Positions 5,349 through 53,687 of a stretch of DNA of 64,000 nucleotides are shown here, piece after piece. The stretch's first letter is position 1. Each line of letters starts with the position of its first letter. A program made the translations under genes and the position numbers. Under the pieces are notes generated by a model. It was not told where the DNA came from, ran no database searches, and was given only the letters and a program-made list of their open reading frames with translations. Location: NCBI RefSeq assembly GCF_988243305.1, contig NZ_OZ547136.1. One strand, written 5' to 3'.

Positions 5349-5633
5349 ATGCCTTTAGCAGCCAAACTCACCGACAAAGGCACCCAGCACGACGGTTATT
5401 ACGAGACCGTCATCACCGCCGGGTCATCCACCGTCTTTATCGATGGTCTTCCCGCAGCCCGTCAGGGAGATCCGCTGACGCCGCATGCTAAACCGAAGCA
5501 TCCCCCTCATCCCCGTAAAATCGCCAGAGGTTCTTCAACCGTCTTTATTGACGGCCTGCCCGCCGCCAGAAGCGGTGATGCTGTTGACTGCGGCGGCGTG
5601 GTTATTGGTGGCGGTACGGTAAATATAGGCTGA
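5349..5633 (+). CDS. PAAR-domain protein (T6SS spike tip)
   Basis: 94 aa; AGGAGG RBS 6-11 nt upstream; repeated GSSTVFIDGLPAAR(Q/S)GD motifs typical of PAAR; immediately upstream of vgrG. Confidence 0.75.
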   Translation: MPLAAKLTDKGTQHDGYYETVITAGSSTVFIDGLPAARQGDPLTPHAKPKHPPHPRKIARGSSTVFIDGLPAARSGDAVDCGGVVIGGGTVNIG

Positions 5634-5651
5634 TATGTCTGAGAGGTATTT

Positions 5652-7616
5652 ATGTCCTTAAAAGGTCTTCGCTTTACGCTGGAGGTTGACGGCCAGGAGC
5701 CGGACACCTTTGCAGTGGTGAATTTCAGGTTAATCCAGAACCAGTCATATCCGTTTGTGATGAGTGTGGATGTTGCCAGCGACTCTTTTATGCAGACGGC
5801 GGAGATGCTGCTGGAGAAGAAGGCGACACTGACCATCTGGCAGGGCGCAGTGGCGCAGCGTTATGTCACCGGCGTGGTGGCGGGTTTTGGCATGCAGGAG
5901 AATAACGGCTGGCAGATGCGTTATCACCTGCGTATTGAGCCGCCGTTATGGCGGTGCGGGCTGCGGCAGAACTTTCGTATCTTCCAGCAGCAGGATATCC
6001 GGACGATATCGGCCACGTTACTGAACGAGAACGGCGTCACGGAGTGGACGCCGCTGTTTTATGAGGACCATCCGGCGCGGGAGTTCTGTGTCCAGTACGG
6101 AGAGAGCGACCTGGCGTTTCTGTCCCGGCTGTGGGCGGAGGAGGGAATTTTCTTCTTTGAGCGGTTTGCGGCGGACAGTCCGGAGCAGAAGCTGACGCTG
6201 TGCGACGATGTGGCGGGGCTGTCACAGGCGGGGGAGTTTCCGTTTAACCCGGACACATCGGCAGGAGCGGAGACGGAGTGTGTCAGTATGTTCCGTTATG
6301 AGGCGCATGTCCGCCCGTCATCGGTGCAGAGCCAGGATTACACGTTTAAGGTGCCGGACTGGCCGGGGATGTATGAGCAGCAGGGTGAGAACCTGAACGG
6401 ACAGCTGGCGCAGTATGAGATATTTGATTATCCGGGAAGGTACAAGGATGAACAGCACGGCAAGGATTTCACGCTGTACCGGATGGAGAGCCTGCGCAGT
6501 GATGCGGAAAAGGCCACAGGGCAGAGTAATTCACCGAAGCTGTGGCCGGGAACGCGGTTTACGCTGACGGGGCATCCGCAGAAGATGCTGAACCGTGAAT
6601 GGCAGGTGGTACAGAGCATACTGTCAGGAAGCCAGCCGCAGGCGCTGCACGGCAGCCAGGGGAGAGGAACCACGCTGGGCAATCAGTTAGAGGTGATACC
6701 GGCGGACCGGACGTGGCGTCCACGGCTGCAAAGCAAACCGAAGGTGGACGGGCCACAGAGCGCCATTGTCACCGGTCCTGCGGGAGAGGAAATCTTCTGC
6801 GACGAACACGGACGTGTGCGAGTGCAGTTTCACTGGGACAGGTATAACCCGGCAACGGAGGCGAGTTCGTGCTGGGTGAGGGTGTCACAGGCGTGGGCGG
6901 GGCCGGGGTTCGGTAACCTGGCGATACCGCGGGTGGGCCAGGAGGTGATTGTTGATTTCCTGAACGGCGACCCGGACCAGCCGATAATCATGGGACGGAC
7001 ATACCATGAGGACAACCGTTCACCGGGGAGTCTGCCGGGGACGAAGACGCAGATGACGATACGGTCGAAGACCTATAAAGGTAGCGGATTTAACGAGCTG
7101 CGGTTTGAAGACGCCACCAGTAATGAGCAGGTGTATATCCATGCGCAGAAGAACATGGATACGGAGGTGCTCAACGACCGGACAACGGATGTGAAACATG
7201 ACCATACGGAAACCATCGGTAACAACCAGAAGATAACGGTGGTGAAGGGCCAGACGGTGAATGTGGGGAGCAAAAAGGAAGGTGGTCATGACCAGAAAGT
7301 GACAGTGGCGAATGACCAGACCATTACGGTACAAAACGATCAGCGGCTGGATGTTACCCACGATCGTCACAAGGATGTAGGGAACGATCAAATCAGTAAG
7401 ATAATAGGAAAAGATACCGAAGAAGTCGTGAAATCCCAGGATATTAAAGTTGGAGAAGATTACAGCCTGACAGTTACCAACAGCCTCACCATTAAAGTCG
7501 GTGAATGCTTACTGAAAATGAATAAGGACGGTACTATCATTCTCAATGGTAAAAGTATCCAGATTGAAGGAAAAGATAAAATCAATATTTTCGGCGCAGA
7601 TATTGATCTGGATTAA
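5652..7616 (+). CDS. vgrG: T6SS spike protein VgrG with divergent C-terminal tail
   Basis: 654 aa; canonical VgrG N-terminus (GLRFTLEVDG...PPLWRCGLRQNFRIFQ) and gp27/gp5-like body; last ~90 aa and underlying DNA (from ~7380) AT-rich and unlike the canonical VgrG C-terminus preserved at 11572-11916. Confidence 0.9.
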   Translation: MSLKGLRFTLEVDGQEPDTFAVVNFRLIQNQSYPFVMSVDVASDSFMQTAEMLLEKKATLTIWQGAVAQRYVTGVVAGFGMQENNGWQMRYHLRIEPPLWRCGLRQNFRIFQQQDIRTISATLLNENGVTEWTPLFYEDHPAREFCVQYGESDLAFLSRLWAEEGIFFFERFAADSPEQKLTLCDDVAGLSQAGEFPFNPDTSAGAETECVSMFRYEAHVRPSSVQSQDYTFKVPDWPGMYEQQGENLNGQLAQYEIFDYPGRYKDEQHGKDFTLYRMESLRSDAEKATGQSNSPKLWPGTRFTLTGHPQKMLNREWQVVQSILSGSQPQALHGSQGRGTTLGNQLEVIPADRTWRPRLQSKPKVDGPQSAIVTGPAGEEIFCDEHGRVRVQFHWDRYNPATEASSCWVRVSQAWAGPGFGNLAIPRVGQEVIVDFLNGDPDQPIIMGRTYHEDNRSPGSLPGTKTQMTIRSKTYKGSGFNELRFEDATSNEQVYIHAQKNMDTEVLNDRTTDVKHDHTETIGNNQKITVVKGQTVNVGSKKEGGHDQKVTVANDQTITVQNDQRLDVTHDRHKDVGNDQISKIIGKDTEEVVKSQDIKVGEDYSLTVTNSLTIKVGECLLKMNKDGTIILNGKSIQIEGKDKINIFGADIDLD

Positions 7617-7631
7617 TCTGGAGAAATTAAC

Positions 7632-8573
7632 ATGAATATTGAAAATGAAACTGGTTTTCCTCACTTTCAGTTCGAAAAAGTGGGATATTATGGTGAGTTA
7701 TTCACAGTAGTGGTAGTTAATCAGACATTTGATTTTTCATATAGCGGCGGTCTCTGTCTGATTGCGGATGAGCAGCGACTGCCACTGATGACCGACTCCT
7801 GGTACGGCGAACCGGAAAGCAGCAGTCTTAAAACAGCAACCGATTTGGTTTGCAGAAAAGTCAGGGCAGATGTTTTATTAAATGGACACGCATGGCATGC
7901 CACCGGGGAAACCACTCGATGGCAGGCCAGTTTACAGGTGGGTAATCTTCAGCGCCAATTTGATATATGTGGCCCTTGCCAATGGCAATATATATCTAAC
8001 CGCTGGCAACTTAGCGAACCTGAATTAACTGATCGGGTACTGTTACGCCATGAACTGGCGTCAGCCAGTGAATTTAATCCTGTAGGCATTGTTATTCCCT
8101 CCCTGATAACGCTTGGCGATAAATCGCCCTGTCCAGCTCCACAGTTATCTGCCTCACCAGGAGCTATTTGCCGTAGCTGGCCTTCACGATTGCGCTATGC
8201 CAGAGGTTTTACAGAACAGTGGCAAAAGACTGTTCAACCTTTTTATCCAGATGAATTCGATTTTGCATTCATGAATTATTCTCCACCAGAACAACAATAC
8301 GATGGTTATTTAATTGGCAATGAAAAAATTATATTGAACGGCCTGTTACCTTCTAAAATGGAACAAACTTGTTTCCTTCCAGATATTAGACTATTGGCGT
8401 ATTTGTTTTACCGCTCTGATAAAAACGTAGAACTGCGCCCATTGTTGGCTGACACACTGACCATCCACACAGACGATGAGCAACTAACACTACTCTGGCG
8501 CTTAACGCTCCCCGTGGATTCTCTTCCACAACGTATTGTTTTGACGACGGAGCAGAGGGGACCTCATGGCTGA
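7632..8573 (+). CDS. DUF2169-family T6SS adaptor protein
   Basis: 313 aa; N-terminus MNIENETGFPHF...FTVVVVNQTFDF fits the DUF2169 signature; 15 nt after vgrG stop and overlaps the next gene by 8 nt. Confidence 0.75.
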   Translation: MNIENETGFPHFQFEKVGYYGELFTVVVVNQTFDFSYSGGLCLIADEQRLPLMTDSWYGEPESSSLKTATDLVCRKVRADVLLNGHAWHATGETTRWQASLQVGNLQRQFDICGPCQWQYISNRWQLSEPELTDRVLLRHELASASEFNPVGIVIPSLITLGDKSPCPAPQLSASPGAICRSWPSRLRYARGFTEQWQKTVQPFYPDEFDFAFMNYSPPEQQYDGYLIGNEKIILNGLLPSKMEQTCFLPDIRLLAYLFYRSDKNVELRPLLADTLTIHTDDEQLTLLWRLTLPVDSLPQRIVLTTEQRGPHG

Positions 8574-9699
8574 AAATCATATTGGTTGTCGTGAATCGAA
8601 GTACGTTGCGATATGTATTGCGCCTGATGTCTGCAAGGTTGGTGATGCGATAGTGCCGTTTGACAGCTTTCAGAACCTGACACATGAGAAAATTTATATC
8701 AGCAATGTCAGGGCACGGGGCAATCCAATACTGACCGTGGACTGTATTATTGCAGGTACACGAAGTAATGCCGGGAAAGGTGTCAGTTCTGGCACCAGTC
8801 TGGGCAGCGGTGACTGCCGGATACTGACAGGCGTGGATCATATAAAGTGCAAGGGAAAGCCGGTAGCCAGGAATCTTTCGCTGGTTGCCATGAATAATGA
8901 TAATACTGTTGGAAAACTGTATACCCAGACAAACCCGCCAAATCAGATAATACCTGTTAAAGAATCATCGCTTTGGGCCAAGTATCTGGAACTGCAAATA
9001 CAACAGCAAGAGTTTGAGCTTGAGTCCAAAAAGCAAGAAGCAGATGCAATGATAGGATTAGGCAAGGCATTTATTAATGGCTGGTATATGTTGGGTGCAT
9101 TGATTGCCAAAGGTCAGATGCAAAATGACATTGCCCAAATGGAAAGTAATATTGCTCTGGCGAGAGGGTTGGGGATGGATACCCAAATTATGGAGCGGGC
9201 GAATGAGACCAACAGGGAGGTAATGGAAACTATTGATCCTAGAGAGCCATTGTTGAAACCTGCCAATGAAACCCAAGCAATGGCGATGGAGGTTGAGCCA
9301 TGGCTGGAACTTATGACCGGGGTTGGAGCACTGGTGAAAGGTTTGGTCAAGTTTTCAGCGAAGTTTGCAATAAAATCGGTTGGCAGAATGGGGAGGAGCG
9401 GTGCTAAAATTGTGCTGGATGCAAATGGATTGCCTATTCCTGTTCCTCCAAGCGTTGGCGCTGCGGGAAGAGTTCCGAGAGTATTACAAACTGGAGGTAA
9501 TACTCTTGAGGCAAGAACTGCCAGGGAGTTAAATGAATTTTTTGGTAAAAATATTAACAGGAGAGAATGGGGGAAAGCTTTAGAAAAGTTGAAAAAAGAT
9601 TTACGCTTACGAGGTGATCACCATGGTCGAATACTTGATAATGGTGATTATATTGATGACTCAGGAAATATTTTAGGAAACATAGAAGATTATTTATGA
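8566..9699 (+). CDS. DUF4150 (PAAR-like) N-terminal domain fused to unclassified C-terminal toxin domain; predicted T6SS effector
   Basis: 377 aa; N-terminal ~125 aa with PDVCK motif typical of PAAR-like DUF4150; C-terminal ~250 aa not recognisable by eye (ends ...RGDHHGRILDNGDYIDDSGNILGNIEDYL); start overlaps DUF2169 stop (ATGGCTGA). Confidence 0.7.
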   Translation: MAENHIGCRESKYVAICIAPDVCKVGDAIVPFDSFQNLTHEKIYISNVRARGNPILTVDCIIAGTRSNAGKGVSSGTSLGSGDCRILTGVDHIKCKGKPVARNLSLVAMNNDNTVGKLYTQTNPPNQIIPVKESSLWAKYLELQIQQQEFELESKKQEADAMIGLGKAFINGWYMLGALIAKGQMQNDIAQMESNIALARGLGMDTQIMERANETNREVMETIDPREPLLKPANETQAMAMEVEPWLELMTGVGALVKGLVKFSAKFAIKSVGRMGRSGAKIVLDANGLPIPVPPSVGAAGRVPRVLQTGGNTLEARTARELNEFFGKNINRREWGKALEKLKKDLRLRGDHHGRILDNGDYIDDSGNILGNIEDYL

Positions 9700-10175
9700 T
9701 TAAGAATATACAATCAAGGCTTACCCCGATATCTCATGAATATCCAAGTTGTGATGAGTGCTATGCTAGCCTCTTGATTTACACAGGTAATACTCACCCT
9801 AATGAAATAAGTATTCACTTAGAACTTGAGCCAACATCAATTAATATAAAAGGAGATGAAATTATTACTCTATCGGGAAAGAAAAGATATGCAAAAAATT
9901 CATATTGGATGCTCTCGTCAGAAAATCTAGTGAACTCGAAAGATATTCGAGAACATCTGGATTGGCTACTTCACAAACTTGGACCTAAATCATCAAATAT
10001 TGCAAAATTGCAAGCATTAGAAAATATTTCAATGGGTATTGACTGTACCTGGAGATCATTGAATTGGCACGGTGGGCCAACTTTATGGCCTGAGCAGATG
10101 AAAATAATGGCTAATCTTGGATTGGAGTGTTCATTTGATATTTATTTCGTCGGCAATGAAGATGGCAATCTTTAA
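9696..10175 (+). CDS. Candidate cognate immunity protein (cytoplasmic, no signal peptide)
   Basis: 159 aa; start overlaps effector stop (ATGA), suggesting translational coupling; AT-rich; no recognisable family. Confidence 0.5.
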   Translation: MIKNIQSRLTPISHEYPSCDECYASLLIYTGNTHPNEISIHLELEPTSINIKGDEIITLSGKKRYAKNSYWMLSSENLVNSKDIREHLDWLLHKLGPKSSNIAKLQALENISMGIDCTWRSLNWHGGPTLWPEQMKIMANLGLECSFDIYFVGNEDGNL

Positions 10176-10254
10176 TTATTGCTCGCAAATTTTTAATAAA
10201 CAAATAGCACAATAAAATACTCGGTATCTATGGTATATACCTAATAAACAAGGG

Positions 10255-11571
10255 CAGGGAAAGATCATCAGAAGTACACTTTTTGTACCAGGGAAAGATC
10301 ACGTAACGCTGCTTTTTTGTACTAAATAATTCGCATTTTATGTTTAAAAATTGAGATATTCCTCATTACCTGAAGCTGTTTTTTATTGAGTATACATGAT
10401 CAAATACTCCTTACATAATTAAGGAGAACACAATGGAACTTAAAAAATTGATGGAACATATTTCTATTATCCCCGATTACAGACAAGCCTGGAAAGTGGA
10501 GCATAAATTGTCGGATATTCTACTGTTGACTATTTGTGCCGTTATTTCTGGTGCAGAAGGCTGGGAAGATATAGAGGATTTTGGGGAAACACATCTCGAT
10601 TTTTTAAAACAATACGGTTATTTTGAAAATGGTATTCCTGTTCACGATACCATCGCCAGAGTTGTATCCTGTATCAGTCCTGCAAAATTTCACGAGTGCT
10701 TTATTAACTGGATGCGAGATTGCCATACTTCAGATGATAAAGACGTCATCACAATTGATGGAAAAACGCTCCGGCACTCTTATGACAAGAGTCGCCGCAG
10801 GGGAGCGATTCATGTCATTAGTGCGTTCTCAACAATGCACAGCCTGGTCATCGGACAGATCAAGACGGATGAGAAATCCAATGAGATTACAGCTATCCCA
10901 GAACTTCTTAACATGCTGGATATTAAAGGAAAAATCATCACAACTGATGCGATGGGTTGCCAGAAAGATATTGCAGAGAAGATACAAAAACAGGGAGGTG
11001 ATTATTTATTCGCTGTAAAAGGAAACCAGGGGCGGCTAAATAAAGCCTTCGAGGAAAAATTTCCGCTGAAAGAATTAAATAATCCAGAGCATGACAGTTA
11101 CGCAATTAGTGAAAAGAGTCACGGCAGAGAAGAAATCCGTCTTCACATTGTTTGCGATGTCCCTGATGAACTTATTGATTTCACGTTTGAATGGAAAGGT
11201 CTGAAGAAATTATGCGTGACAGTCTCCTTTCGGTCAATAATAGCAGAACAAAAGAAAGAGCCAGAAATGACGGTCAGATATTATATCAGTTCTGCTGATT
11301 TAACCGCAGAGAAGTTCGCCACAGCAATCCGAAACCACTGGCACGTGGAGAATAAGCTGCACTGGCGTCTGGACGTGGTAATGAATGAAGACGACTGCAA
11401 AATAAGAAGAGGAAATGCCGCAGAATTATTTTCAGGGATACGGCACATCGCTATTAATATTTTAACGAATGATAAGGTATTCAAGGCAGGGTTAAGATGT
11501 AAGATGCGAAAAGCAGCCATGGACAGAAACTACCTGGCGTCAGTCCTTGCTGGGAGCGGGCTTTCGTAATC
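10255..11571 (+). mobile_element. Intact H-repeat (ISAs1-family) element
   Basis: Left-end leader shared with two other copies; contains full 378 aa transposase ORF; right end abuts vgrG fragment. Confidence 0.8.
10433..11569 (+). CDS. H repeat-associated (ISAs1-family) transposase
   Basis: 378 aa [55 protein letters not shown]..., the conserved H-rpt ORF found with Rhs elements. Confidence 0.85.
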
Positions 11572-11916
11572 TTGCCCTGGCAGGAGCATAAGACGACGGG
11601 GAACCATGTCAGCCTGGTGGAGGGAAAGCACAGTCTGGAGGTGAAAGGCGATCTGGCGAGGAAGGTGAGTGGCACGCTGGGGATAAAGGTGGACGGGGAT
11701 ATCGTGCTGGAGAGCTGCAGCCGGATAAGCCTGAAGGTGGGCGGTTCGTTTATCGTTATTCAGTCGGGCGGTGTGGATATAGTGGGGCCGAAGATAAATC
11801 TTAATGGTGGGGGGAGTCCGGGGACACCGGTACCGACACTGCAACCCACTGTCCTGAACACTTTAGTCACTAATGATACGGATAGTAATACTGATGATGA
11901 TATCGGTAATGATTAG
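11572..11916 (+). pseudogene. vgrG: vgrG 3' fragment (canonical VgrG C-terminal ~110 aa), orphaned by H-repeat insertion or recombination
   Basis: Translation ...SRISLKVGGSFIVIQSGGVDIVGPKINLNGGGSPGTPVP matches canonical VgrG C-terminus; ORF-track start is a TTG immediately after transposase stop, so no genuine start. Confidence 0.7.
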
Positions 11917-12093
11917 ACCAGAGTGAAGTTCATGTTCTCGTAGCGGGATAATCATTCAGATAAAGATAACGGATGACGGTAGTAATAATAATACAATAAT
12001 ACTGTGATTTTCTGCTTTCTAAGCAGAGATGCTCTGTGAATGAATAATTCATACTCGTTACATGTTTTATAATCTTAATAAGGACTATTGATA

Positions 12094-14166
12094 ATGATAA
12101 TCAGCCCTCCAATATTGCATGCGCATATAGACACTGAAAAAGACTCTGACTGGGTAAACAGAATGATGTCTGTTGATCCAGAGAGAAATTTCCCAATGAA
12201 TAGCGGTCGTTCTTGGCATGGTGGAGTTCATTTGAACGGCAATCTGTCAGAGACTGTTAGGTGTATTGCCGATGGGAAGGTTATTTCAATACGCCAGCCA
12301 GAACCAGCGAAAAATACAGTTCCCCCGTTAAATTATAACGGAGTTACGGATAAAGGCTATGTTCTGATAAAACATGAAACAGAAATCGGTAGTGGAGAAG
12401 AGGGTAAAATCGTCTATTACTCATTATATATGCACCTGAGAAGCATTGACAGTAATGTGCAGCCGGGAAACACGCTATACCGGAAAGAACCGGTTGGTGC
12501 AGCAGGGATGGTGGACGGACAGAACGCCTTTCATTTTCAGATTTTTTGTGATGATGAAAACATTCAGAAAATCACAGGAAGAATATCACCGGAAACAGAC
12601 CTGAATAAAGATGGACGAACTAATGTGGTTTACGGTGATAGTCATTTTTATCTCCCTACCGGAACACCGATTTATGGGGACATGCCGGAAGAAAACTCGC
12701 TTGCGAACAACAGTCCGGTACAAAGAACCAGCGTGCCATTGTATGTCACAATGAGTTTTGATAAAGGCAATTGTACGATGGTGACGCGTCAGCAGCATGA
12801 AGTGCTGAGTGATTCCTATACTGAAGTAGGTTCTCCCTTGATTAATGCTGATGGTAAGGATTATGAATACAATCTCTATTCCTACGCGCTGCAACTCTAT
12901 CCGAAAAGCCCAAGTGCCGGTTATGAGATGCTGCGTTTTGGTCGGGTTGTTAATACAGAATATGAAGAATTAGTCCCGGCGGATGCGCCGCTGTGGAGAA
13001 CAATCAATACGCCACAGGGTAAAGGCGTTGTTAACTTAGGGGCGAGAGATATCAGGGTTTACAGCGACGGTGATTTTCCACACTGGACAGGGTGGAAACT
13101 GGTGAACGATGATGCGGACACCAACAGCCAGTGCAATTCACCAACAATCCTGTGTACAACCCGCAATGACCTAAGTCGGATGATTTGTCATTTTCCGCTA
13201 GAATGGGACAGCGCCACCGTGGAATCACGGTTTGAGTGGCTGAAATCACCCAATGACGTATTGAGTAAGCCGATGACAGAGCCTGACCTGGATTTGCTGA
13301 TAGAACACTGTAAGGCGCTTTGTTTGGTAGAGAATCCGTTACCTGCCAGGCGTGTATGGCATTTTGATCCCAGGCAGTTTATTGCACATTTCAGGAAATG
13401 TGGATGGTTAGGAGAAAATGATATTATAAGTGTGGTAAGACGTTATCAAAATGCTTATCCCATGACATCAGAACTTACAAGACCATTAAGTAAAGACACT
13501 CTAATTGAGCGGATTACTAGCCAAGGACAAAATAGCAGTGGTGAGATGATAAGACCTGCAGGGTTGAAAAATGAACTGTCAAAGTCACTAAGGAAGTACT
13601 TAATTACAACCCCATTGCGGATTGCGCATTATTTCGGTCAGATGGCGAGAGAAACAGGCAGATTTTCGTCTTTTATAGAGAATGGTGATTTGAGTTATTT
13701 TGATATGTATGAGCCAGGAACAGAACAGGGACTTAAGCTTGGAAATAATGTTGTTGGTGATGGTGCAAGATTTAAAGGCAGAGGTACCATACATCTAACT
13801 GGTCGTGAGAATTATAGAAATTATGGAAAGTATAGAAATCCGTCAGATGATGATTTTTTTACTACAGGACCCAATAACCAACTCCCAGTTGAAAATGCCT
13901 ATTTTTCTTGCGATGCCGGGGGATACTTTTGGGCAAGTAAGCAAAAATACATAATGGTAAGCCATCGATTGACACCTAGTGGTAGTTTAGGCGTTAATTA
14001 TTGGGCGGATAAAGGATGTAGTTTGTCACATGCCAGAGAAGTTACACGGCGAATAAACCCAGCAGCAGATGGCTTCGATTTAGTACGTTGGCCAGCATTT
14101 GAGCATTCTTGGTATGTATTGAATGATGAAATAACACCTCCACTTAATTACATAAGGATTGTTTAA
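12094..14166 (+). CDS. Predicted bifunctional peptidoglycan hydrolase effector: N-terminal M23-like peptidase domain, C-terminal GH19/lysozyme-like domain
   Basis: ORF-track start 12088 is TTG; ATG at 12094 has AAGGA RBS ~10 nt upstream (690 aa). N-terminal region aligns by eye to LytM/M23 (HGGVHL...YYSLYMHL...AFHFQIF) with non-canonical metal-ligand positions; C-terminal region carries GH19-like motifs (AHYFGQMARETG...GRGTIHLTGRENY...GGYFWASK). Confidence 0.7.
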   Translation: MIISPPILHAHIDTEKDSDWVNRMMSVDPERNFPMNSGRSWHGGVHLNGNLSETVRCIADGKVISIRQPEPAKNTVPPLNYNGVTDKGYVLIKHETEIGSGEEGKIVYYSLYMHLRSIDSNVQPGNTLYRKEPVGAAGMVDGQNAFHFQIFCDDENIQKITGRISPETDLNKDGRTNVVYGDSHFYLPTGTPIYGDMPEENSLANNSPVQRTSVPLYVTMSFDKGNCTMVTRQQHEVLSDSYTEVGSPLINADGKDYEYNLYSYALQLYPKSPSAGYEMLRFGRVVNTEYEELVPADAPLWRTINTPQGKGVVNLGARDIRVYSDGDFPHWTGWKLVNDDADTNSQCNSPTILCTTRNDLSRMICHFPLEWDSATVESRFEWLKSPNDVLSKPMTEPDLDLLIEHCKALCLVENPLPARRVWHFDPRQFIAHFRKCGWLGENDIISVVRRYQNAYPMTSELTRPLSKDTLIERITSQGQNSSGEMIRPAGLKNELSKSLRKYLITTPLRIAHYFGQMARETGRFSSFIENGDLSYFDMYEPGTEQGLKLGNNVVGDGARFKGRGTIHLTGRENYRNYGKYRNPSDDDFFTTGPNNQLPVENAYFSCDAGGYFWASKQKYIMVSHRLTPSGSLGVNYWADKGCSLSHAREVTRRINPAADGFDLVRWPAFEHSWYVLNDEITPPLNYIRIV

Positions 14167-14170
14167 AACA

Positions 14171-14674
14171 ATGAATTTTAAAAAAACAATAATCACTTCG
14201 GTAGGTTTGATATTTATTTCATTCTCTTTTGTGGCAGAGTGCTCTCAACTCAAAAATTTGAATAATTACTCAGTGATGCTTTGTGGAAAAGTGTCAAGTA
14301 ATATCCTTGATGATATTGGTGGTTATAAAGAAAGAGATAAAAAATCCGAAATGGTAGATTTACTTATATTAATTAGTAATGACGAGCCTATCGGTGTTTC
14401 TGAGACCAAAGTGATTTCTAATGGTAAAATATATTTTAAGGGGGAAAGTACTATGAACTTGGATGCCTCATTCATTATGACAATAAATGGTGGAGTTCAT
14501 ACTGACACTGTCACTTATATATCAAAGAAGAATAAAATTATCGGGGGCTACTTTTATAATAATGAGAGTAAAACTGATAAGCTTAAGGAAGTATATATCT
14601 CAAACACAGGAACTGTATATCATATAAATATTGAAAGTGTCAGCGATGATAAATGTCTTGATAAATTTAAGTAA
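14171..14674 (+). CDS. Candidate periplasmic immunity protein (Sec signal peptide)
   Basis: ORF-track start 14159 is TTG; ATG at 14171 gives MNFKKTIITSVGLIFISFSFVAEC... with hydrophobic signal sequence; 4 nt after effector stop; AT-rich. Confidence 0.5.
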   Translation: MNFKKTIITSVGLIFISFSFVAECSQLKNLNNYSVMLCGKVSSNILDDIGGYKERDKKSEMVDLLILISNDEPIGVSETKVISNGKIYFKGESTMNLDASFIMTINGGVHTDTVTYISKKNKIIGGYFYNNESKTDKLKEVYISNTGTVYHINIESVSDDKCLDKFK

Positions 14675-14944
14675 CGATAAGGCAAGGATGATTGATTGGG
14701 TTTAGTTAAGTTTCGAGAACAAATTTCCGCGGCAGAGAGTATAAATGTAGGGGCAAGAATGCTAAAATCGTGAAGTGCACCACAACTATAATTCCAGTTT
14801 ACTTTGTTTATTTGATTGTAATTTAACCATTAAATGATTAGGTTTTTTAGAAAAGGACGTCTGATGAATGTTTAAATTAATTTTGAATACATTTCAATTA
14901 TTTTGTTGTATGTTGGCAAGGTCAAATAAGACATAATTTAATGG

Positions 14945-15650
14945 CAGGGAAAGATCATCGTAAGTACACTTTTTGTACTAAATAATTTGCATTTTATGTT
15001 TAAAAATTGAGATATTCCTCATCACCTGAAGCTGTTTTTTATTACTTATATATGATCAAATACTCCTTACATAAATAAGGAGAACAAAATGGAACTTAAA
15101 AAATTGATGGAACATATTTCTATTATCCCCGATTACAGACAAGCCTGGAAAGTGGAACATAAATTATCGGATATTCTACTGTTGACTATTTGTGCTGTTA
15201 TTTCTGGTGCAGAAGGATGGGAAGATATAGAGGATTTTGGGGAAACACATCTCGATTTTTTGAAGCAATATTGTGATTTTGATAATGGTATTCCTGTTCA
15301 CGATACCATTGCCAGAGTTGTATCCTGTATCAGTCCTGAAAAATTTCATGAGTGCTTTATTAACTGGATGCTTGACTGCCATTCTTCAGATGATAAAGAC
15401 GTCATTGCAATTGATGGAAAAACGCTCCGGTACTCTTATGACAAGAGTCGTCGCAAGGGAGCGATTCACGTTATTAGTGTGTTCTCAATAATGCACAGTC
15501 AGATTCCTTGGAAGATCAAGACGAATGAAAAAAACAATGAGATTACAGCTGTTTCTGAATTTCTTAACATAATGGGTATTAAAGGAAAAATAATTGCACC
15601 GATCCAATGTGATACCAGAAAGACATCGCTAAGAAGATAGCTATAGACAA
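14945..15650 (+). mobile_element. Truncated H-repeat (ISAs1-family) element, 5' ~700 bp only
   Basis: Same left-end leader as the copy at 10255; transposase ORF frameshifted and truncated (183 aa) relative to the intact copy. Confidence 0.75.
15089..15640 (+). pseudogene. H-repeat transposase, truncated/frameshifted
   Basis: 183 aa, highly similar to residues 1-175 of the intact copy, then diverges and stops. Confidence 0.75.
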
Positions 15651-15713
15651 TTATTACCCTCCGTCAGCCCTTGTTAAGCGAGGAGAGACGTAATCTGTCC
15701 AGTCCCCTAATGC

Positions 15714-16811
15714 TTATAAAGCCCATCGATTTCGCCCACTTTCTTTCGCCCGGTATAACGCAGCGTCGGCATCTGAAATAATTTGTTCAGCCGTTTTTGC
15801 GGGAGCAGAACAGGTAATCCCCTGACTAACCGTAACGAATGCATTAACAGCAGATGCCTGATGTGGGATAGCTGCCAGTTTAAGTTCTTGCTTCACTCTG
15901 GCTGCTACCGTCTTTGCTTCCGGCAATGTTGCATTAAAAAGTATGATGGCAAACTCTTCGCCACCATAACGGACAACAACATCCTCCGACTGGCGAGTTG
16001 AACGCTGTAGAGCGTCGGCAACTTGTATTAGACAACGATCCCCAGCAGGATGCCCGTAAGTGTCGTTGTAACGTTTAAAAAAATCGACATCCAGCATAAT
16101 AAGAGCAAATGACCCGCCGTTATCCATCGCGTCGTGTAAGATACTGTTCATTGCACGTCGGTTTGCTATCCCAGTTAAAGGATCACGATGTGCTAATGCA
16201 TCAAGGCGATTAATTAACTGGTTGTTATAACTGTTTTGTACCCATGCTTCTTCAAACCAACGTAACAAAATGAGTCGCCCACCATATAGCGCCAGTGAAA
16301 AAATACACCATACAACAGCAAAATGAATATTGATCTGTTGATTAAGCATAAGACTCGCTATTGGAGTGGTGAACCATAAGGGAATGACAAATGCGAGCAA
16401 TGATGGGGTATGGAAATAAAGTGCGACAACGCCACTAAGCATTAATAATACACATAGTGGATAAGCAAACTGCAGCGTCCAGTACGCAATAAAGTGATAA
16501 CTACACCATGACCATAGCAGGCTCAGGGCAACTAATAGCACCTGGATAGGTAATGTTTTTTGCCGAGGGATGAGTAGTAAACCACTGCAAATCAGCAGAA
16601 TACCCGTTGCAGATATATCAATAGAATGTATAAGGCTTTTTTCATTTAACCAGGGTGGAGTAAGGTCATTAAACAGAACACGGCGCAGCAAAATTATCAA
16701 TGCAAAACTGACATTGATAAAAGCAAACCATGGCAAACTAATTGTCATGCCGCGGATAACCATATCGCGGCGTGTTTGCCACGAGTGATGCGTTTTTCTT
16801 CTTTCAGCCAT
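15714..16811 (-). CDS. Membrane-anchored diguanylate cyclase (GGDEF domain)
   Basis: 365 aa; N-terminal multi-TM region; C-terminal GGDEF domain with RYGGEEF active-site motif and conserved DVDFFKRYND...GH.AGD pattern; absent from this position in K-12. Confidence 0.85.
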   Translation of the reverse strand: MAERRKTHHSWQTRRDMVIRGMTISLPWFAFINVSFALIILLRRVLFNDLTPPWLNEKSLIHSIDISATGILLICSGLLLIPRQKTLPIQVLLVALSLLWSWCSYHFIAYWTLQFAYPLCVLLMLSGVVALYFHTPSLLAFVIPLWFTTPIASLMLNQQINIHFAVVWCIFSLALYGGRLILLRWFEEAWVQNSYNNQLINRLDALAHRDPLTGIANRRAMNSILHDAMDNGGSFALIMLDVDFFKRYNDTYGHPAGDRCLIQVADALQRSTRQSEDVVVRYGGEEFAIILFNATLPEAKTVAARVKQELKLAAIPHQASAVNAFVTVSQGITCSAPAKTAEQIISDADAALYRAKESGRNRWAL

Positions 16812-16857
16812 TTTTTAGCCAAATAAGGGCAGGAGACCTGCCCGATACAGAGTAAAA

Positions 16858-18834
16858 TTATGGTGTCACTATATTGAACCAAAATTCAAAATTATCCATA
16901 TAACCTAACAGCTCGTTGAGCTTTTCCGCATTGCCGGTAATTTTGACATCACCTTTGTCCGTGGCTTCTTTCAGCGTCTCTTCTTTCAGTACAATTTTGT
17001 TCAATACATCACGAGATAGAGAGATAGTGGCATCAGCCTCCGAAGCCTCTACACCAGCGGTATGATTGAGAACACCATTTTCAAGCTCTACCTTATAGGT
17101 GCCGCCATCTTCACCAAAATCGAAATTCAACACGGCTTTGGCATCTGCCGCTTTCTCACCATTAATATGGACGGCAAGATAATCAAAGAACATTTCTGGC
17201 GTCATTGCACGCACAGTGTCAGGGCTGGCAGTATTTGGTGTTGGTAATTTTTGTACGCCGTTACGCAATTCCTGTGCACCAGTGAGATAGAAATTACGCC
17301 ACGGCCCAGATTCAGCCTGATAGCCTAACTGCTCAAGCGCATCAGCTTCCAGATTTCTCGCTGCCTGGTTGTTTGGATCCGCAAACACCACCTTACTAAC
17401 AACTTGGGCAACCCAGCGGAAATTACCCTGGTCATAATCCTGTTTGGCTTTCTGTAAAATGGCATCAGCACCGCCCATATACTCGACGAATTTTTTTGCG
17501 CCTTCTTCTGGCGGTAGTTCATCAAGCGTCGCGGGGTTACCATCAAACCAGCCGAGATAAAGCACGTAAGTTGCTTTCACGTCATGACTTACCGAACCGT
17601 AATAGCCGCGATTCGCCCAGGTGTTAGCCAGTGAAGAGGGCAGTTTAAAGTTTGCGGCAATTTCATCACGGGTCATCCCTTGATTAGCCATGCGCAGAGT
17701 TTGATCATTGATGTAACGATACAAATCACGCTGGCTTTTAAGCAGTTTGACCACGTTATCGTTGCCCCAGGTTGGCCAGTGATGTTGAGCGAGAATAATC
17801 TCGGCTTTATCACCCCACAAATTGAGAGCTTCATTAATATATTTTGACCACGGCAGCGGTTGGCGAATTTTAGCCCCACGCAGCGAATAGGTGTTATGAA
17901 GGGTGTGCGTGACATCTTCAGCGGTTTCGATCAGTTTCTTTTCTTCAATAAACCACAGCATTTCAGAAGGCGCTTCAGAACCTGGCGCCATCAGGAAATC
18001 ATAAGTCAACCCGTCAATAGTTTCTTTTTGTCCGGTTTTGGTGATGTAGTTAGTAGGAGCAATCAACGTGACTGTTCCTGCTGAAGTAGTCGTTCCCAGT
18101 CCAGCCCCCACCTGGCCTTTAACATCAGGTTTCAATAAGTTGCCATACATATAACTGGCTCGTCGGCTCATCACATTGCCAGCCATAATATTTTCGGAAA
18201 CGGCTTCCTCCAAAAATCCGGCTGGCGCATAGATTTTAACTTTGCCTGATTTAACGTCAGCTTCATCAATTACGCCACGAACACCACCGTAGTGATCGAC
18301 ATGACTGTGTGTATAGATAACCGCCACTACCGGTTTTTTGCCGCGATTTTTGTAATAGAGATCCATACCCACTTTGGCTGTTTCTGCTGAAACAAGGGGA
18401 TCAACGACGGTAATACCCTCTTTGCCTTCAATGATGGTCATATTTGATAGATCGAGATTGCGAATCTGATAGACACCTTCAGTTACTTCGAATAACCCGC
18501 TGATATTTATCAGTTGCGCCTGACGCCATAAACTCGGATTCACCGTATCAGGGGCTTTATCGCCTTCTTTGATAAAAGCGTAATGTTGTGGATCCCAGAT
18601 AACATTCCCTTGTTCGCCCTTAATCACGTCTTGAGGGATAGGGGCAATAAAACCTTTATGGGCATCAGTAAAGTCAGTGTTATCGGCAAACGGCAACTGG
18701 TTGGAGAGTAAATTGTTTGCTTGTTGCGTGGCTGCGGTGGCGTCTTTAGGAGCTTCCGCCGCGAGGAGAGGTAAAGAACTGGTGGTGAATAATCCCGTTA
18801 TTAGCAGACTTTTAACGATATGATTAAGCTGCAT
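16858..18834 (-). CDS. Secreted alkyl/aryl sulfatase, metallo-beta-lactamase fold (YjcS/SdsA1/BDS1-like)
   Basis: 658 aa; signal peptide MQLNHIVKSLLITGLFTTSSLPLLAAEAP; MBL motif THSHVDHYGG; C-terminal SCP2-like dimerisation region typical of the family; not at this locus in K-12. Confidence 0.8.
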   Translation of the reverse strand: MQLNHIVKSLLITGLFTTSSLPLLAAEAPKDATAATQQANNLLSNQLPFADNTDFTDAHKGFIAPIPQDVIKGEQGNVIWDPQHYAFIKEGDKAPDTVNPSLWRQAQLINISGLFEVTEGVYQIRNLDLSNMTIIEGKEGITVVDPLVSAETAKVGMDLYYKNRGKKPVVAVIYTHSHVDHYGGVRGVIDEADVKSGKVKIYAPAGFLEEAVSENIMAGNVMSRRASYMYGNLLKPDVKGQVGAGLGTTTSAGTVTLIAPTNYITKTGQKETIDGLTYDFLMAPGSEAPSEMLWFIEEKKLIETAEDVTHTLHNTYSLRGAKIRQPLPWSKYINEALNLWGDKAEIILAQHHWPTWGNDNVVKLLKSQRDLYRYINDQTLRMANQGMTRDEIAANFKLPSSLANTWANRGYYGSVSHDVKATYVLYLGWFDGNPATLDELPPEEGAKKFVEYMGGADAILQKAKQDYDQGNFRWVAQVVSKVVFADPNNQAARNLEADALEQLGYQAESGPWRNFYLTGAQELRNGVQKLPTPNTASPDTVRAMTPEMFFDYLAVHINGEKAADAKAVLNFDFGEDGGTYKVELENGVLNHTAGVEASEADATISLSRDVLNKIVLKEETLKEATDKGDVKITGNAEKLNELLGYMDNFEFWFNIVTP

Positions 18835-19139
18835 CTTAAGCGTCTCCAGAATGGATTTTTATTGGGGGTAATTACGGATGAAAATTTTTAGTGAGGGCAA
18901 GAATAACTATAATGGGCGTTAACAAATTGGCAAGCCGGGAAATTGATGTTTTCTTAATGGCATGTTGGCGAAGAATATATTCTGCAAGTTAACGTTTTCA
19001 TTGGCGCTTTATTTAAAAGTGTGTAGTACAAATATGTACAATTTCAAGTAGGCATTATTGCCGTAAAAACGCATTACCGGACACACGACATTCACAACGT
19101 GTGTTAATTTTACTGACATCTTTCAAAAGGAGCACAATC

Positions 19140-19367
19140 ATGCCGCACATAGACATTAAATGTTTTCCGCGTGAACTGGACGAACAACAAAAAGCAGCAC
19201 TTGCTGCAGATATTACCGACGTTATTATTCGCCATCTGAACAGTAAAGATAGCTCGATAAGCATTTCTCTACAGCAGATTCAACCAGAATCTTGGCAAGC
19301 TATCTGGGATGCCGAAATCGCGCCCCAAATGGAGGCTTTGATAAAGAAACCCGGTTACAGCATGTAA
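19140..19367 (+). CDS. pptA: 4-oxalocrotonate tautomerase-family protein
   Basis: ORF track starts at upstream in-frame codon; recognised PptA begins [22 protein letters not shown] (75 aa) with catalytic Pro2. Confidence 0.85.
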
Positions 19368-51263: not shown

Positions 51264-53663
51264 TCAGATTTTCAGCGGTAACACACTGCTCATCCAGCCT
51301 GGAATTTCTTCGGCGGGTAGGGGGCGGGAAAAGAAATATCCCTGAATAACGCGACAGTGGATCTTGCGTAGCATCTCAAATTGCTCTTTGGTTTCGACGC
51401 CTTCCGCCACGACGGTTAAATTAAGGCTTTGCCCAATGCTGGTAATGGCTTCAAGTAAGGCAAGGATGCGTTTTTCGGTCAGACAACGATCGACAAAACT
51501 TTTGTCAATTTTGATTTCCGTTACTGGAAGACTGACTAAGCGGGATAATCCGGAAAAGCCCGTGCCAAAATCATCTACCGATAAACCCACGCCCATATCG
51601 CGCAGGATCTGAATGCGCTTAAAGATTTCGGTATCGTGTTCCATCATCATACTTTCCGTGATTTCCACCGTCAGCTGGTGGCCGTCAATACCCCAGGCGT
51701 GCATTGCATCAGACACCTGATTAGGCAGTTGATTACTGCGAAAGTGCAGCGCCGACAAGTTAACGGATAACGCCGGGATATGAATATTCTGGCTACGCCA
51801 TTCTGCTAACTGACGACAAGCTTCCGCGATGACCCAGCGTCCAATATTTTCGATTTCACCGATCTCTTCTGCGAGAGGAATAAACCGTGAAGGGGGCACA
51901 TGACCATGCAGGGGATCGTGCCAGCGAGCAAGGGCTTCGATGCCGTACAGTTCACCCGTTTCTGCGAAGATTTGTGGCTGGTAAACCAGTTTCAGTTGGT
52001 TATTGCTAATTGCTTCTTTCAGCGCTGCGCCTAAAACCAAACGCTCTTTTACCATTTCGTTCATCGCCGGGCTGAAGACCTGCCAGCCGTTACCGCCATT
52101 CTTGCGAATATAATCCATTGCATTGTGAGCAGTGGAGAGCAGGTAATCGCGGTTTTTACCCACGTCGTAGCTGATGCCAATGCTCAAGGTGAGCGGGAAT
52201 GGTTTATCGTCAATCATTATCGGCTTGCTGACCACATTCCGTAGCTCATCGGCGATTTGGGTTATGTTACTGACGTCGTTTTCCAGGCTCACCAGGACAA
52301 ACTGCGTACCTTCGATACGACAGAGATACTGATCCGGTTTGAGTTTTTCACGAAAGCGATTGACCACTTCCAGCAATGCCTGATCGGCCCACGCATAGCC
52401 AAGGCTATCAATCACATCCTGAATATGGTCAACACCGATGAGATACACCACCGGAGAGACGGCTTTGTCGACCAGGTCATCGAGGTAATTGTGCAGGTTA
52501 TTGCGATTTGGCAGACCGGTCATCGGATCAAATTGGATGAGTTGTTCAATATGCTGACGGCTTTTTTCCTGTTCCAGCGCCAGCGCGGCCATATGCTGGC
52601 TGATATCTGCCACGCGTTCGATAAAGGCGCTGGTTTCTGCTCCTGACGAGGTTTTAATTTGCAGGATCCCCGCAGGCGCACCATCACGCTGACGAATGGT
52701 CGCTGACCAGCTTTGCGCATTTTGAACTTCTGCACCGTGCGAAGATGACGCCCAGTGTATCGGCATCCCGTTGCGCAGCGCGAACAGCGAAACATGCGAT
52801 TCGTTGAGAACAGATTCGATGTTACGACAAATGATTTCCCCCATTTCATGAAATGGCGGGCTGCTGCACATGGCGGCGAGAATATTGCCTTCAAGTTGGC
52901 GGATTTGCCGTTCTTCGGTGATATCCGAGAAAGTCATTACCAGGTTCTGCAGATGCGCGAGCACATCATAGACCGGGCTGATAGAGGCTTTAATCCAGAT
53001 TTTTTCACCGGTGCGCGTCAACAGCAGAAATTCGTCCTGATCGCGGGCGGTTTTCCATAGCAACTGTTGTAAACGAATGCGGTTATCAGCAGGGAATTCT
53101 GGAATGTTAAGGAGTGAATCGGGCTGCATACCGCTGGCTTCGCTAATGCAGTAACCAAACATTTCGGTAAATGCGCGATTGCACTGCACAATATGGCGTT
53201 CCGGATCGAGGACAATCACCGGTCGGTCGAGATGGTCAACGGCAATAATCAATTGTCGGGTCTGTTCTTTTTGCGCCATTTCTACGCTGGCATCCCGTAC
53301 CAGCGCCAGGTAATAAATTTTACCCTCGGCGCTCACTTTCGATAGCGCAAAACGTGTCCAGATTTTACTGCCGTCTTTTTTCTCCAGCTGCAGCTCCCGA
53401 CTCATCCCCTCGACGCGCGCTTTACCGCCTTCACGGTTGTGACGGATGTATTCAGGATGCGCGGGACGCAAATCCCGCGGAATCAGCATATCAATGTTAT
53501 TGCCAATAACTTCTTCACGTTTGTACCCCCAGAGCTTCTCTGCGGCGGGGTTGAAAAACATCACTTCATCATTTTCGTTAATTAACACCGCGCCCATCAT
53601 ATTTTGCTCAAGGGCGGGGAAAAAAATGCCATCGGCGGCATTATCCGCATCGGTTAGCTTCAT
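51264..53663 (-). CDS. dosP: Oxygen-sensing c-di-GMP phosphodiesterase (heme PAS-GGDEF-EAL)
   Basis: 799 aa from MKLTDADNAADGIFF; EAL domain present; alternative ATG 8 codons upstream (53687) abuts dosC stop. Confidence 0.9.
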   Translation of the reverse strand: MKLTDADNAADGIFFPALEQNMMGAVLINENDEVMFFNPAAEKLWGYKREEVIGNNIDMLIPRDLRPAHPEYIRHNREGGKARVEGMSRELQLEKKDGSKIWTRFALSKVSAEGKIYYLALVRDASVEMAQKEQTRQLIIAVDHLDRPVIVLDPERHIVQCNRAFTEMFGYCISEASGMQPDSLLNIPEFPADNRIRLQQLLWKTARDQDEFLLLTRTGEKIWIKASISPVYDVLAHLQNLVMTFSDITEERQIRQLEGNILAAMCSSPPFHEMGEIICRNIESVLNESHVSLFALRNGMPIHWASSSHGAEVQNAQSWSATIRQRDGAPAGILQIKTSSGAETSAFIERVADISQHMAALALEQEKSRQHIEQLIQFDPMTGLPNRNNLHNYLDDLVDKAVSPVVYLIGVDHIQDVIDSLGYAWADQALLEVVNRFREKLKPDQYLCRIEGTQFVLVSLENDVSNITQIADELRNVVSKPIMIDDKPFPLTLSIGISYDVGKNRDYLLSTAHNAMDYIRKNGGNGWQVFSPAMNEMVKERLVLGAALKEAISNNQLKLVYQPQIFAETGELYGIEALARWHDPLHGHVPPSRFIPLAEEIGEIENIGRWVIAEACRQLAEWRSQNIHIPALSVNLSALHFRSNQLPNQVSDAMHAWGIDGHQLTVEITESMMMEHDTEIFKRIQILRDMGVGLSVDDFGTGFSGLSRLVSLPVTEIKIDKSFVDRCLTEKRILALLEAITSIGQSLNLTVVAEGVETKEQFEMLRKIHCRVIQGYFFSRPLPAEEIPGWMSSVLPLKI

Positions 53664-53687
53664 GATTACCTCTGCATCCTGGCGCAT

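Follow-up and report, generated by a model that had tools for sequence, protein, structure and literature searches.

An SdsAP-type alkyl sulfatase gene beside a MASE5-GGDEF diguanylate cyclase gene: a recurrent neighbourhood in Escherichia and other enterobacteria

The sulfatase-cyclase locus

Contig NZ_OZ547136.1 (NCBI RefSeq assembly GCF_988243305.1) exhibits, within a stretch of 64,000 nucleotides that we analysed as a whole (hereafter the window), two adjacent open reading frames (ORFs) corresponding to an alkyl sulfatase and a membrane-bound diguanylate cyclase of the GGDEF type. A preliminary description of this DNA had placed the sulfatase gene directly upstream of the cyclase gene, and the ORF list returns both, on the minus strand, at the coordinates given there. 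The two genes are co-directional and separated by a gap of 46 bp (16812-16857), sharing the strand and short spacing expected of a two-gene operon; the hairpin that had been noticed inside the gap was located at 16843-16827. The genes and their immediate flanks are as follows.

16858..18834, minus strand: alkyl sulfatase gene, 658 amino acids (aa) (ORF, Pfam, PDB matches, and the ratio of nonsynonymous to synonymous substitution rates, dN/dS)
15714..16811, minus strand: MASE5-GGDEF diguanylate cyclase gene, 365 aa (ORF, Pfam, dN/dS, AlphaFold2 model)
19140..19367, plus strand: pptA, a conserved flank, divergent from the sulfatase gene (ORF, annotation, comparison with K-12)
15089..15640, plus strand: remnant of an ISAs1 (H-rpt) transposase gene, truncated and frameshifted, 73 bp away from the cyclase gene on its 3' side (ORF, and the RefSeq records of near-identical strains)

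Both genes are absent from Escherichia coli K-12, as had also been stated: in strain MG1655 the spacing between ydcC (H-rpt) and pptA is only 99 bp. E. coli Z1323HEC0462 matches the window at 99.9% identity across 8000-16000, the stretch that was compared. Its pair is flanked by pptA/yddH on one side and by ISAs1 and a type VI secretion system (T6SS) island on the other, not by phage genes, and is thus no prophage moron at this site.

The alkyl sulfatase

The sulfatase exhibits the full three-domain architecture of the metallo-beta-lactamase (MBL)-fold alkyl sulfatases, namely an MBL domain with the HxHxDH motif (Pfam Lactamase_B, 1e-16), a dimerisation domain (Alkyl_sulf_dimr, PF14863, 1.2e-62, positions 1-139 of 139) and an SCP2-like C-terminal domain (Alkyl_sulf_C, PF14864, 1.6e-43, positions 1-125 of 125). 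Three smaller features belong to this gene.

18292..18309, minus strand: HSHVDH (HxHxDH) metal-binding motif, residues 176-181 (motif scan and alignments)
18760..18834, minus strand: predicted Sec signal peptide, residues 1-25, MQLNHIVKSLLITGLFTTSSLPLLA, with the putative cleavage before AEA (hydrophobic N-terminus)
18906..18933, minus strand: candidate sigma-70-like promoter, TTGCCA-16-TATAGT, with 10 of 12 consensus matches (consensus scan)

The HSHVDH motif is identical in the PDB entry 7TL5 and in the Pseudomonas enzyme SdsAP, while YjcS of E. coli reads HSHTDH in the alignment. The crystal chain of SdsAP starts at the residue aligning with residue 26 of the sulfatase. Sigma-70-like sites are no commoner in this region than in shuffled sequences, and the promoter is to be taken as a candidate only.

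The sulfatase exhibits 79.5% identity to 7TL5, an unpublished structure. It scores 1034 bits against SdsAP (4NUR) versus 706 bits against YjcS (4PDX), and its identity to K-12 YjcS is 49%. Being closer to SdsAP than to YjcS, it is best regarded as a second, SdsAP-type paralogue of E. coli, not as a displaced yjcS. Its dN/dS of about 0.03 indicates purifying selection. NCBIfam holds no equivalog model for the sulfatase or the cyclase, the generic GGDEF domain alone passing its cut-off. From these matches the protein should be a zinc-dependent MBL-fold enzyme of type III, hydrolysing primary alkyl sulfate esters in the periplasm. SdsAP of Pseudomonas sp. S9, SdsA1 of P. aeruginosa (2CFU) and YjcS share with it the three domains, the HxHxDH motif and a match over the full length. 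Unlike the sulfatase of the window, these characterised enzymes are not known to adjoin a cyclase.

The cyclase

The cyclase consists of a membrane sensor domain followed by a catalytic domain.

16194..16739, minus strand: MASE5 membrane sensor domain, residues 25-206, with six predicted transmembrane helices, N-in/C-in (Pfam PF17178, hydropathy, AlphaFold2)
15726..16193, minus strand: GGDEF catalytic domain, residues 207-362 (Pfam, TIGR00254, PDB matches)
15951..15965, minus strand: GGEEF active-site motif (motif scan)
16764..16811, minus strand: basic N-terminal extension, MAERRKTHHSWQTRRD, upstream of the start annotated in RefSeq (in-frame conservation across genera)

PF17178 matches the sensor domain with 7.5e-44 over model positions 2-192 of 192, which makes the protein a member of the MASE5 family, and the GGDEF model is matched in full (1.3e-48). 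The catalytic domain further scores 158 bits against TIGR00254 (cut-off 37) and matches WspR, PleD and ImcA in the PDB. Its RYGGEEF motif, which had been reported as intact, is indeed so at residues 281-287. The catalytic and substrate-binding residues D241, D243, N249, D258, K356 and R360 do not vary among 64 members of the cyclase family. The copy in the window is full length and carries every invariant residue of the family, including GGEEF and the C-terminal YRAKxxGRNRW. At the position of the I-site the sequence reads RQSED-VVVRY-GGEEF, that is RxxxD instead of RxxD, the arginine being shifted by one place; in the alignment with 8WCN a glutamine of the cyclase stands where the arginine of the I-site falls. 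RxxxD is common to the whole family, with the consensus R-T-P-x-D. On account of this replacement the canonical feedback (product-inhibition) site is taken to be absent. The dN/dS of 0.14-0.20 in both domains indicates purifying selection, and diversifying selection on the cyclase is ruled out by the same values. By these features the cyclase is a catalytically complete, active-looking enzyme of the inner membrane with a GGEEF motif.

The AlphaFold2 model (predicted local distance difference test score, pLDDT, 86) exhibits a standard GGDEF fold and six transmembrane helices, at residues 14-41, 58-80, 86-109, 116-131, 135-157 and 162-207, the last of which runs on without interruption as a long connecting helix. 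Hydropathy and the positive-inside rule predict that both ends of the sensor lie inside, which would leave periplasmic loops of about 20, 6 and 6 residues. The preliminary description had spoken of an uncharacterised sensor with multiple transmembrane segments: the segments are there, but the domain is not nameless, being the MASE5 of Pfam with very short periplasmic loops. A Foldseek search with the whole model returned GGDEF proteins only, led by the membrane cyclase ImcA (template modelling score 0.41), and gave no hint of what the domain might bind. Mentions of MASE5 in the searchable literature are confined to two tables, of genome contents or promoters, with no signal given.

The automatic RefSeq annotation (PGAP) starts the cyclase at Met17, giving 349 aa from position 16763 and a gap that would measure 94 bp. 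The 16-18 codons ahead of that start are open and in frame, with insertions and deletions in multiples of three, in the Escherichia alleles, Enterobacter, Lelliottia, Salmonella and Hafnia, and from Escherichia to Hafnia they keep a basic (K/R)R..W..R..MV pattern. Because the extension is conserved in frame across genera, the longer start, with its ORF of 365 aa and gap of 46 bp, is probably the correct one.

The intergenic hairpin and expression of the cyclase

The gap between the two genes contains the following element.

16819..16843, minus strand: terminator-like hairpin, GGGCAGG-TCT-CCTGCCC followed by TTATTTGG (stem 16843-16827; conserved across tandem pairs)

This hairpin lies 15 nt past the sulfatase stop codon and 16 nt ahead of the ATG of the cyclase. 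A hairpin with a pyrimidine tract was found at the same place in all tandem pairs examined. The stem of Enterobacter asburiae differs from that of E. coli by a compensatory change of A:U to G:C, and the stems of Lelliottia and of a metagenomic Enterobacter-like contig (L144) are unrelated in sequence and occupy the same position. The element looks like the sulfatase's own intrinsic terminator. With a terminator-like hairpin conserved between the genes, simple co-transcription is unlikely and read-through possible; the earlier suggestion that the genes are co-transcribed or attenuated survives to that extent.

A consensus scan between or just upstream of the genes gave no sigma-70 promoter for the cyclase with at least 9 of 12 matches, and its start codon is preceded by no recognisable Shine-Dalgarno sequence. 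Judging from these sequence features, expression of the cyclase is most likely low. Its simplest source would be partial read-through past the hairpin, a weak promoter being the other candidate.

Ancestry and loss in Escherichia

Among 5426 complete E. coli genomes 438 carry the pair, in keeping with the earlier remark that the cyclase may be strain-variable in this species. The order nhoA-yddH-pptA-sulfatase-cyclase was found in four Escherichia allele groups, the cyclases of which are 77-100% identical. Elsewhere the interval between yddH and yncG holds the sulfatase alone (Citrobacter sedlakii and C. amalonaticus), the sulfatase and then an Rhs element, again with no cyclase (Escherichia albertii), or the cyclase alone (another enterobacterium). 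Remnants of the pair were identified in E. coli. In strain CUVET21-1780 (L255, 4991-5335) about 70 nt of the sulfatase 5' end are left as a stub, directly against ISAs1, and two common cyclase variants (P0032 and P0036) lack the 3' part of the gene, on the side that faces the ISAs1 remnant. In K-12 the deletion extends almost to pptA. The stub and the two cut variants suggest that deletions next to ISAs1 have trimmed this locus to different extents. Since the position between yddH/pptA and yncG is shared across lineages and deletion remnants are found there, the pair appears to be ancestral and to have been eroded from the ISAs1 side. The comparison thus indicates that the pair is an old enterobacterial locus lost by ISAs1 (H-rpt)-adjacent deletions, and not a foreign island.

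This corrects the reading that the label accessory in the preliminary description implies, namely that of an acquired island. That some E. coli gained the pair recently as a horizontal island would account for its G+C content (0.40-0.48, versus 0.50-0.55 in the flanking core genes), for its adjoining ISAs1 and the Vgr island of the T6SS, and for its presence in only about 8% of the complete genomes. We consider such an origin very improbable: the same yddH/pptA position and orientation recur in E. albertii, in Citrobacter and in Escherichia so divergent that the synonymous divergence (dS) of the sulfatase reaches 0.8-0.9, and the E. coli deletion remnants indicate loss rather than gain.

Truncated cyclase alleles (328 aa and 243 aa) occur commonly in E. 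coli. Together with the ISAs1 remnant so close to the 3' end and with the lack of a recognisable Shine-Dalgarno sequence or promoter, they would fit a cyclase that is here a decaying or inactive remnant, in a pair with no signalling role. We hold this to be improbable for the window, where the gene is full length with all invariant residues kept; both domains are under purifying selection, and the exact 349-aa product (as annotated) occurs on 247 contigs.

One further locus (L086, 282-3410) is a mosaic. Its sulfatase is 98.5% identical to that of the window (dS 0.20), its cyclase 80% identical, and the MASE5 half of the latter 74% (dS 0.89). The two dS values point to recombination, with a breakpoint that lies in the gap or slightly within one of the genes.

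Recurrence of the pair in other genera

A profile search of genome contigs with the full-length cyclase alignment was swamped by generic GGDEF matches; alignments that covered most of the query with at least 44% identity were obtained for six loci, besides a few more distant full-length matches. A DNA-pattern scan of metagenomes gave at least 120 loci; among the 120 listed, 10 were real and the rest mostly chance matches. One and the same sulfatase orthologue, with 85-95% identity between genera, stands beside a MASE5 cyclase, or at most 3 kb from it, in five contexts and three orientations. The genes are in tandem (i) in Escherichia and (ii) in Enterobacter asburiae and Lelliottia jeotgali, where they lie in the tynA-feaB interval. 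They are divergent (iii) on the chromosome of Salmonella enterica, adjoining ttcA, and (iv) in lambdoid prophages of Salmonella, as the sole cargo (a moron) between ren and ninB. They are convergent (v) on a Pantoea-like contig of 657 kb (L142, 4747-10637), which exhibits the order sulfatase, outer-membrane protein, FadL-like outer-membrane protein and cyclase. The protein after the sulfatase on this last contig is a secreted one of 263 aa, and a FadL-family outer-membrane channel would fit the uptake of a hydrophobic substrate.

The prophage context is represented by the following pairs.

L113, 5556-9062, and L108, 3608-7113, genes divergent: sulfatase-cyclase pairs of Salmonella lambdoid prophages

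The pair lies between ren and ninB in 22 of 24 IMG/VR contigs (L110-L133), the remaining two contigs ending at the cyclase. It was also found in a Salmonella record and, in part, in the phage record OK490361. PHROG families are assigned on both flanks of the prophage-borne pair. The Salmonella pair is a case of a prophage-borne diguanylate cyclase other than that of DgcX, described below.

The cyclases of Salmonella, Pantoea and Hafnia form a subfamily about 50% identical to the proteins of Escherichia and Enterobacter and 77-80% identical internally, as measured for Salmonella and Pantoea. The sulfatase orthologue beside both subfamilies is nevertheless the same, with 85-91% identity. The adjacency would have arisen more than once or outlived several rearrangements. 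As far as the literature can be searched, a conserved and mobile association of this sulfatase with a MASE5 cyclase appears to be previously undescribed.

Two records of the search deserve mention in their own right. Klebsiella pneumoniae strain 176 exhibits an unannotated partial MASE5-GGDEF match (L109, 6001-6774; 258 aa aligned at 48% identity) that may be a pseudogene, in a record of 5.37 Mb that is filed as a plasmid and looks like a mislabelled chromosome. In Enterobacter cloacae DSM 26481 (L003, 5383-7823) the tynA gene upstream of the cyclase is split into two overlapping ORFs, by a frameshift or a sequencing error.

Named cyclases and comparable systems

DgcX is an additional membrane cyclase of enteroaggregative E. 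coli and O104:H4 (Richter et al. 2014; PMC4287979). Its N-terminal part, some 270 aa with eight transmembrane segments, is like those of YcdT and YeaI; the protein carries RxxD, and its gene lies at the lambda attB site. It resembles the window cyclase in being a strain-variable extra of E. coli with an intact A-site, and it adjoins lambdoid prophages, as do the Salmonella relatives of the window cyclase. The two are nevertheless different proteins: the sensor of DgcX is of the MASE4 type, that of the window cyclase is MASE5, about 190 aa long and with six transmembrane segments, and the window cyclase has RxxxD in place of RxxD and lies at another locus. The same architecture as in the window, at about 50% identity, is found in EL-703 of Enterobacter ludwigii, tabled with no counterpart in MG1655 (PMC7232144), and in DGC3134 of Pantoea sp. 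YR343, which was included in a promoter-fusion screen (PMC8294551). No K-12 protein carries MASE5, in line with the E. ludwigii table (PMC7232144). MASE5-GGDEF proteins of this kind are known from genome tables and that one screen only.

Povolotsky and Hengge reportedly gave the name DgcY in 2016 to a second strain-variable membrane cyclase that E. coli K-12 lacks, and the nomenclature paper of Hengge and others from the same year is said to define MASE5 on DgcY. DgcY shares with the window cyclase its absence from K-12, its association with the membrane and a GGDEF domain as the only output domain, in the same species. The window cyclase is probably DgcY, though this identification is a tentative one. 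The name is absent from the source names in the protein cluster of the cyclase, and literature searches of full texts and supplements returned nothing on DgcY or on MASE5 in E. coli.

A precedent for a coupling between surfactants and cyclic di-GMP (c-di-GMP) is known from P. aeruginosa, in which sodium dodecyl sulfate (SDS) brings about c-di-GMP-dependent aggregation through SiaA/SiaD (PMC4768041). In the SiaABCD system, much as is proposed below for the window pair, SDS raises c-di-GMP via a dedicated cyclase, in an organism that also degrades SDS by an alkyl sulfatase. The homology of SiaD to the window cyclase is confined to the GGDEF domain (154 bits against the SiaD model, cut-off 290). 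SiaD is soluble and is governed by a phosphatase/kinase/partner switch rather than by a membrane sensor, and it is not encoded beside a sulfatase.

Other features of the window

An orphan T6SS cluster (5350-15640) replaces the yncH-rhsE-ydcD-yncI of K-12. It comprises genes for PAAR, VgrG (5652-7616), DUF2169, a PAAR-like protein and DUF4279 proteins, then a full ISAs1 (10433-11569), a 692-aa M23-peptidase protein (12088-14166), a small ORF downstream of it (14159-14674) and the truncated ISAs1. The small ORF has a signal peptide and may encode an immunity protein.

The minus strand also carries the K-12 cyclase/phosphodiesterase pair dosC (53688-55070, with RYGGDEF) and dosP (51264-53687), at 51264-55070. 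With dosC and the MASE5 cyclase the window holds two GGDEF genes.

Functional interpretation

Because the sulfatase and cyclase genes are neighbours in several genera, orientations and contexts, prophages among them, their products most likely act in the same physiological situation. The recurrent neighbourhood lends comparative support to the idea, put forward as speculation in the preliminary description, that alkyl sulfate sensing feeds into c-di-GMP signalling. The sulfatase, predicted to be exported by the Sec pathway, would split periplasmic alkyl sulfates (SDS-like amphiphiles) into fatty alcohol and sulfate. Its transcript would end at the hairpin, and the cyclase, starting 16 nt further on, would be expressed at a low level. 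Since MASE5 has almost no periplasmic surface, it may sense within the membrane; so buried, it would respond to the amphiphilic substrate or to the fatty-alcohol product, and this response would raise c-di-GMP via a GGEEF domain that lacks the canonical I-site. On comparative grounds, a functional link that leads from a surfactant, or from a fatty alcohol, to c-di-GMP is plausible. We rate the overall account, an ancestral two-gene module with some functional association, as about evenly poised between true and false. The more specific proposal of a horizontally mobile sensory module, prophage-borne in Salmonella, in which MASE5 detects sulfated amphiphiles or released fatty alcohols and drives c-di-GMP and biofilm formation, is in our judgement doubtful.

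Several observations speak against such an association. The genes often part company: the cyclase stands with no sulfatase in Enterobacter cloacae, an Enterobacter metagenome-assembled genome, Hafnia, Mangrovibacter and Pantoea agglomerans (L105), as well as in three of the five non-Escherichia metagenome matches among those listed, and the sulfatase with no cyclase in Klebsiella, Citrobacter and Pantoea plasmids, in addition to the single-gene lineages of the yddH-yncG interval. The five contexts are phylogenetically non-independent, from a small sample with counts uncorrected for kinship. The two genes evolve at very different rates, about five-fold apart. By sequence comparison the terminator-like hairpin is conserved across genera, so that the genes depart from an operon in which no terminator intervenes; in Enterobacter cloacae a strong terminator, that of tynA, precedes the cyclase, and a promoter-like element, TTGAGG-16-TATAGT, belongs to the cyclase itself. 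The few periplasmic residues exposed by MASE5 make it unlikely that the domain directly touches a soluble enzyme or ligand of the periplasm, and data on MASE5 expression, activity or ligands are absent from the searchable literature save for the one Pantoea promoter-fusion table.

Much of this would be expected if the genes were functionally unrelated neighbours, adjacent once in an ancestor and thereafter inherited, moved and lost as a block of DNA, the prophage contexts being instances of hitch-hiking. The sulfatase would then serve sulfur or carbon scavenging or detergent tolerance, and the cyclase would sense an unrelated membrane cue. The conserved hairpin between the genes, the many single-gene lineages at identical loci, the Enterobacter cloacae cyclase with its own upstream region, the difference in rate and the lack of a consistently shared regulator or transporter all favour it. 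Less easily accommodated are the tandem, divergent and convergent orientations (the last with two genes between), which need rearrangements and yet leave the genes close together. The number of flanking contexts, at least five, the two cyclase subfamilies beside one sulfatase orthologue, and the prophages that carry the pair as sole cargo between ren and ninB also count against such passive adjacency. We consider it a serious possibility, of somewhat less than even probability. If it holds, the locus amounts to a catalogued strain-variable cyclase beside a second alkyl sulfatase paralogue, and no more.

For E. coli, these results correct the picture of the locus, which appears as ancestral DNA eroded stepwise by ISAs1 (H-rpt)-associated deletions in most strains, K-12 included. 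For the membrane-embedded c-di-GMP sensors (the MASE domains), most of which have unknown inputs, the recurrent neighbourhood provides a testable lead for an orphan domain. If the proposed coupling is true, a class of ligands would for the first time be assigned to MASE5, and the coupling would tie alkyl sulfates of the host or the environment to lifestyle switching in enterobacteria.

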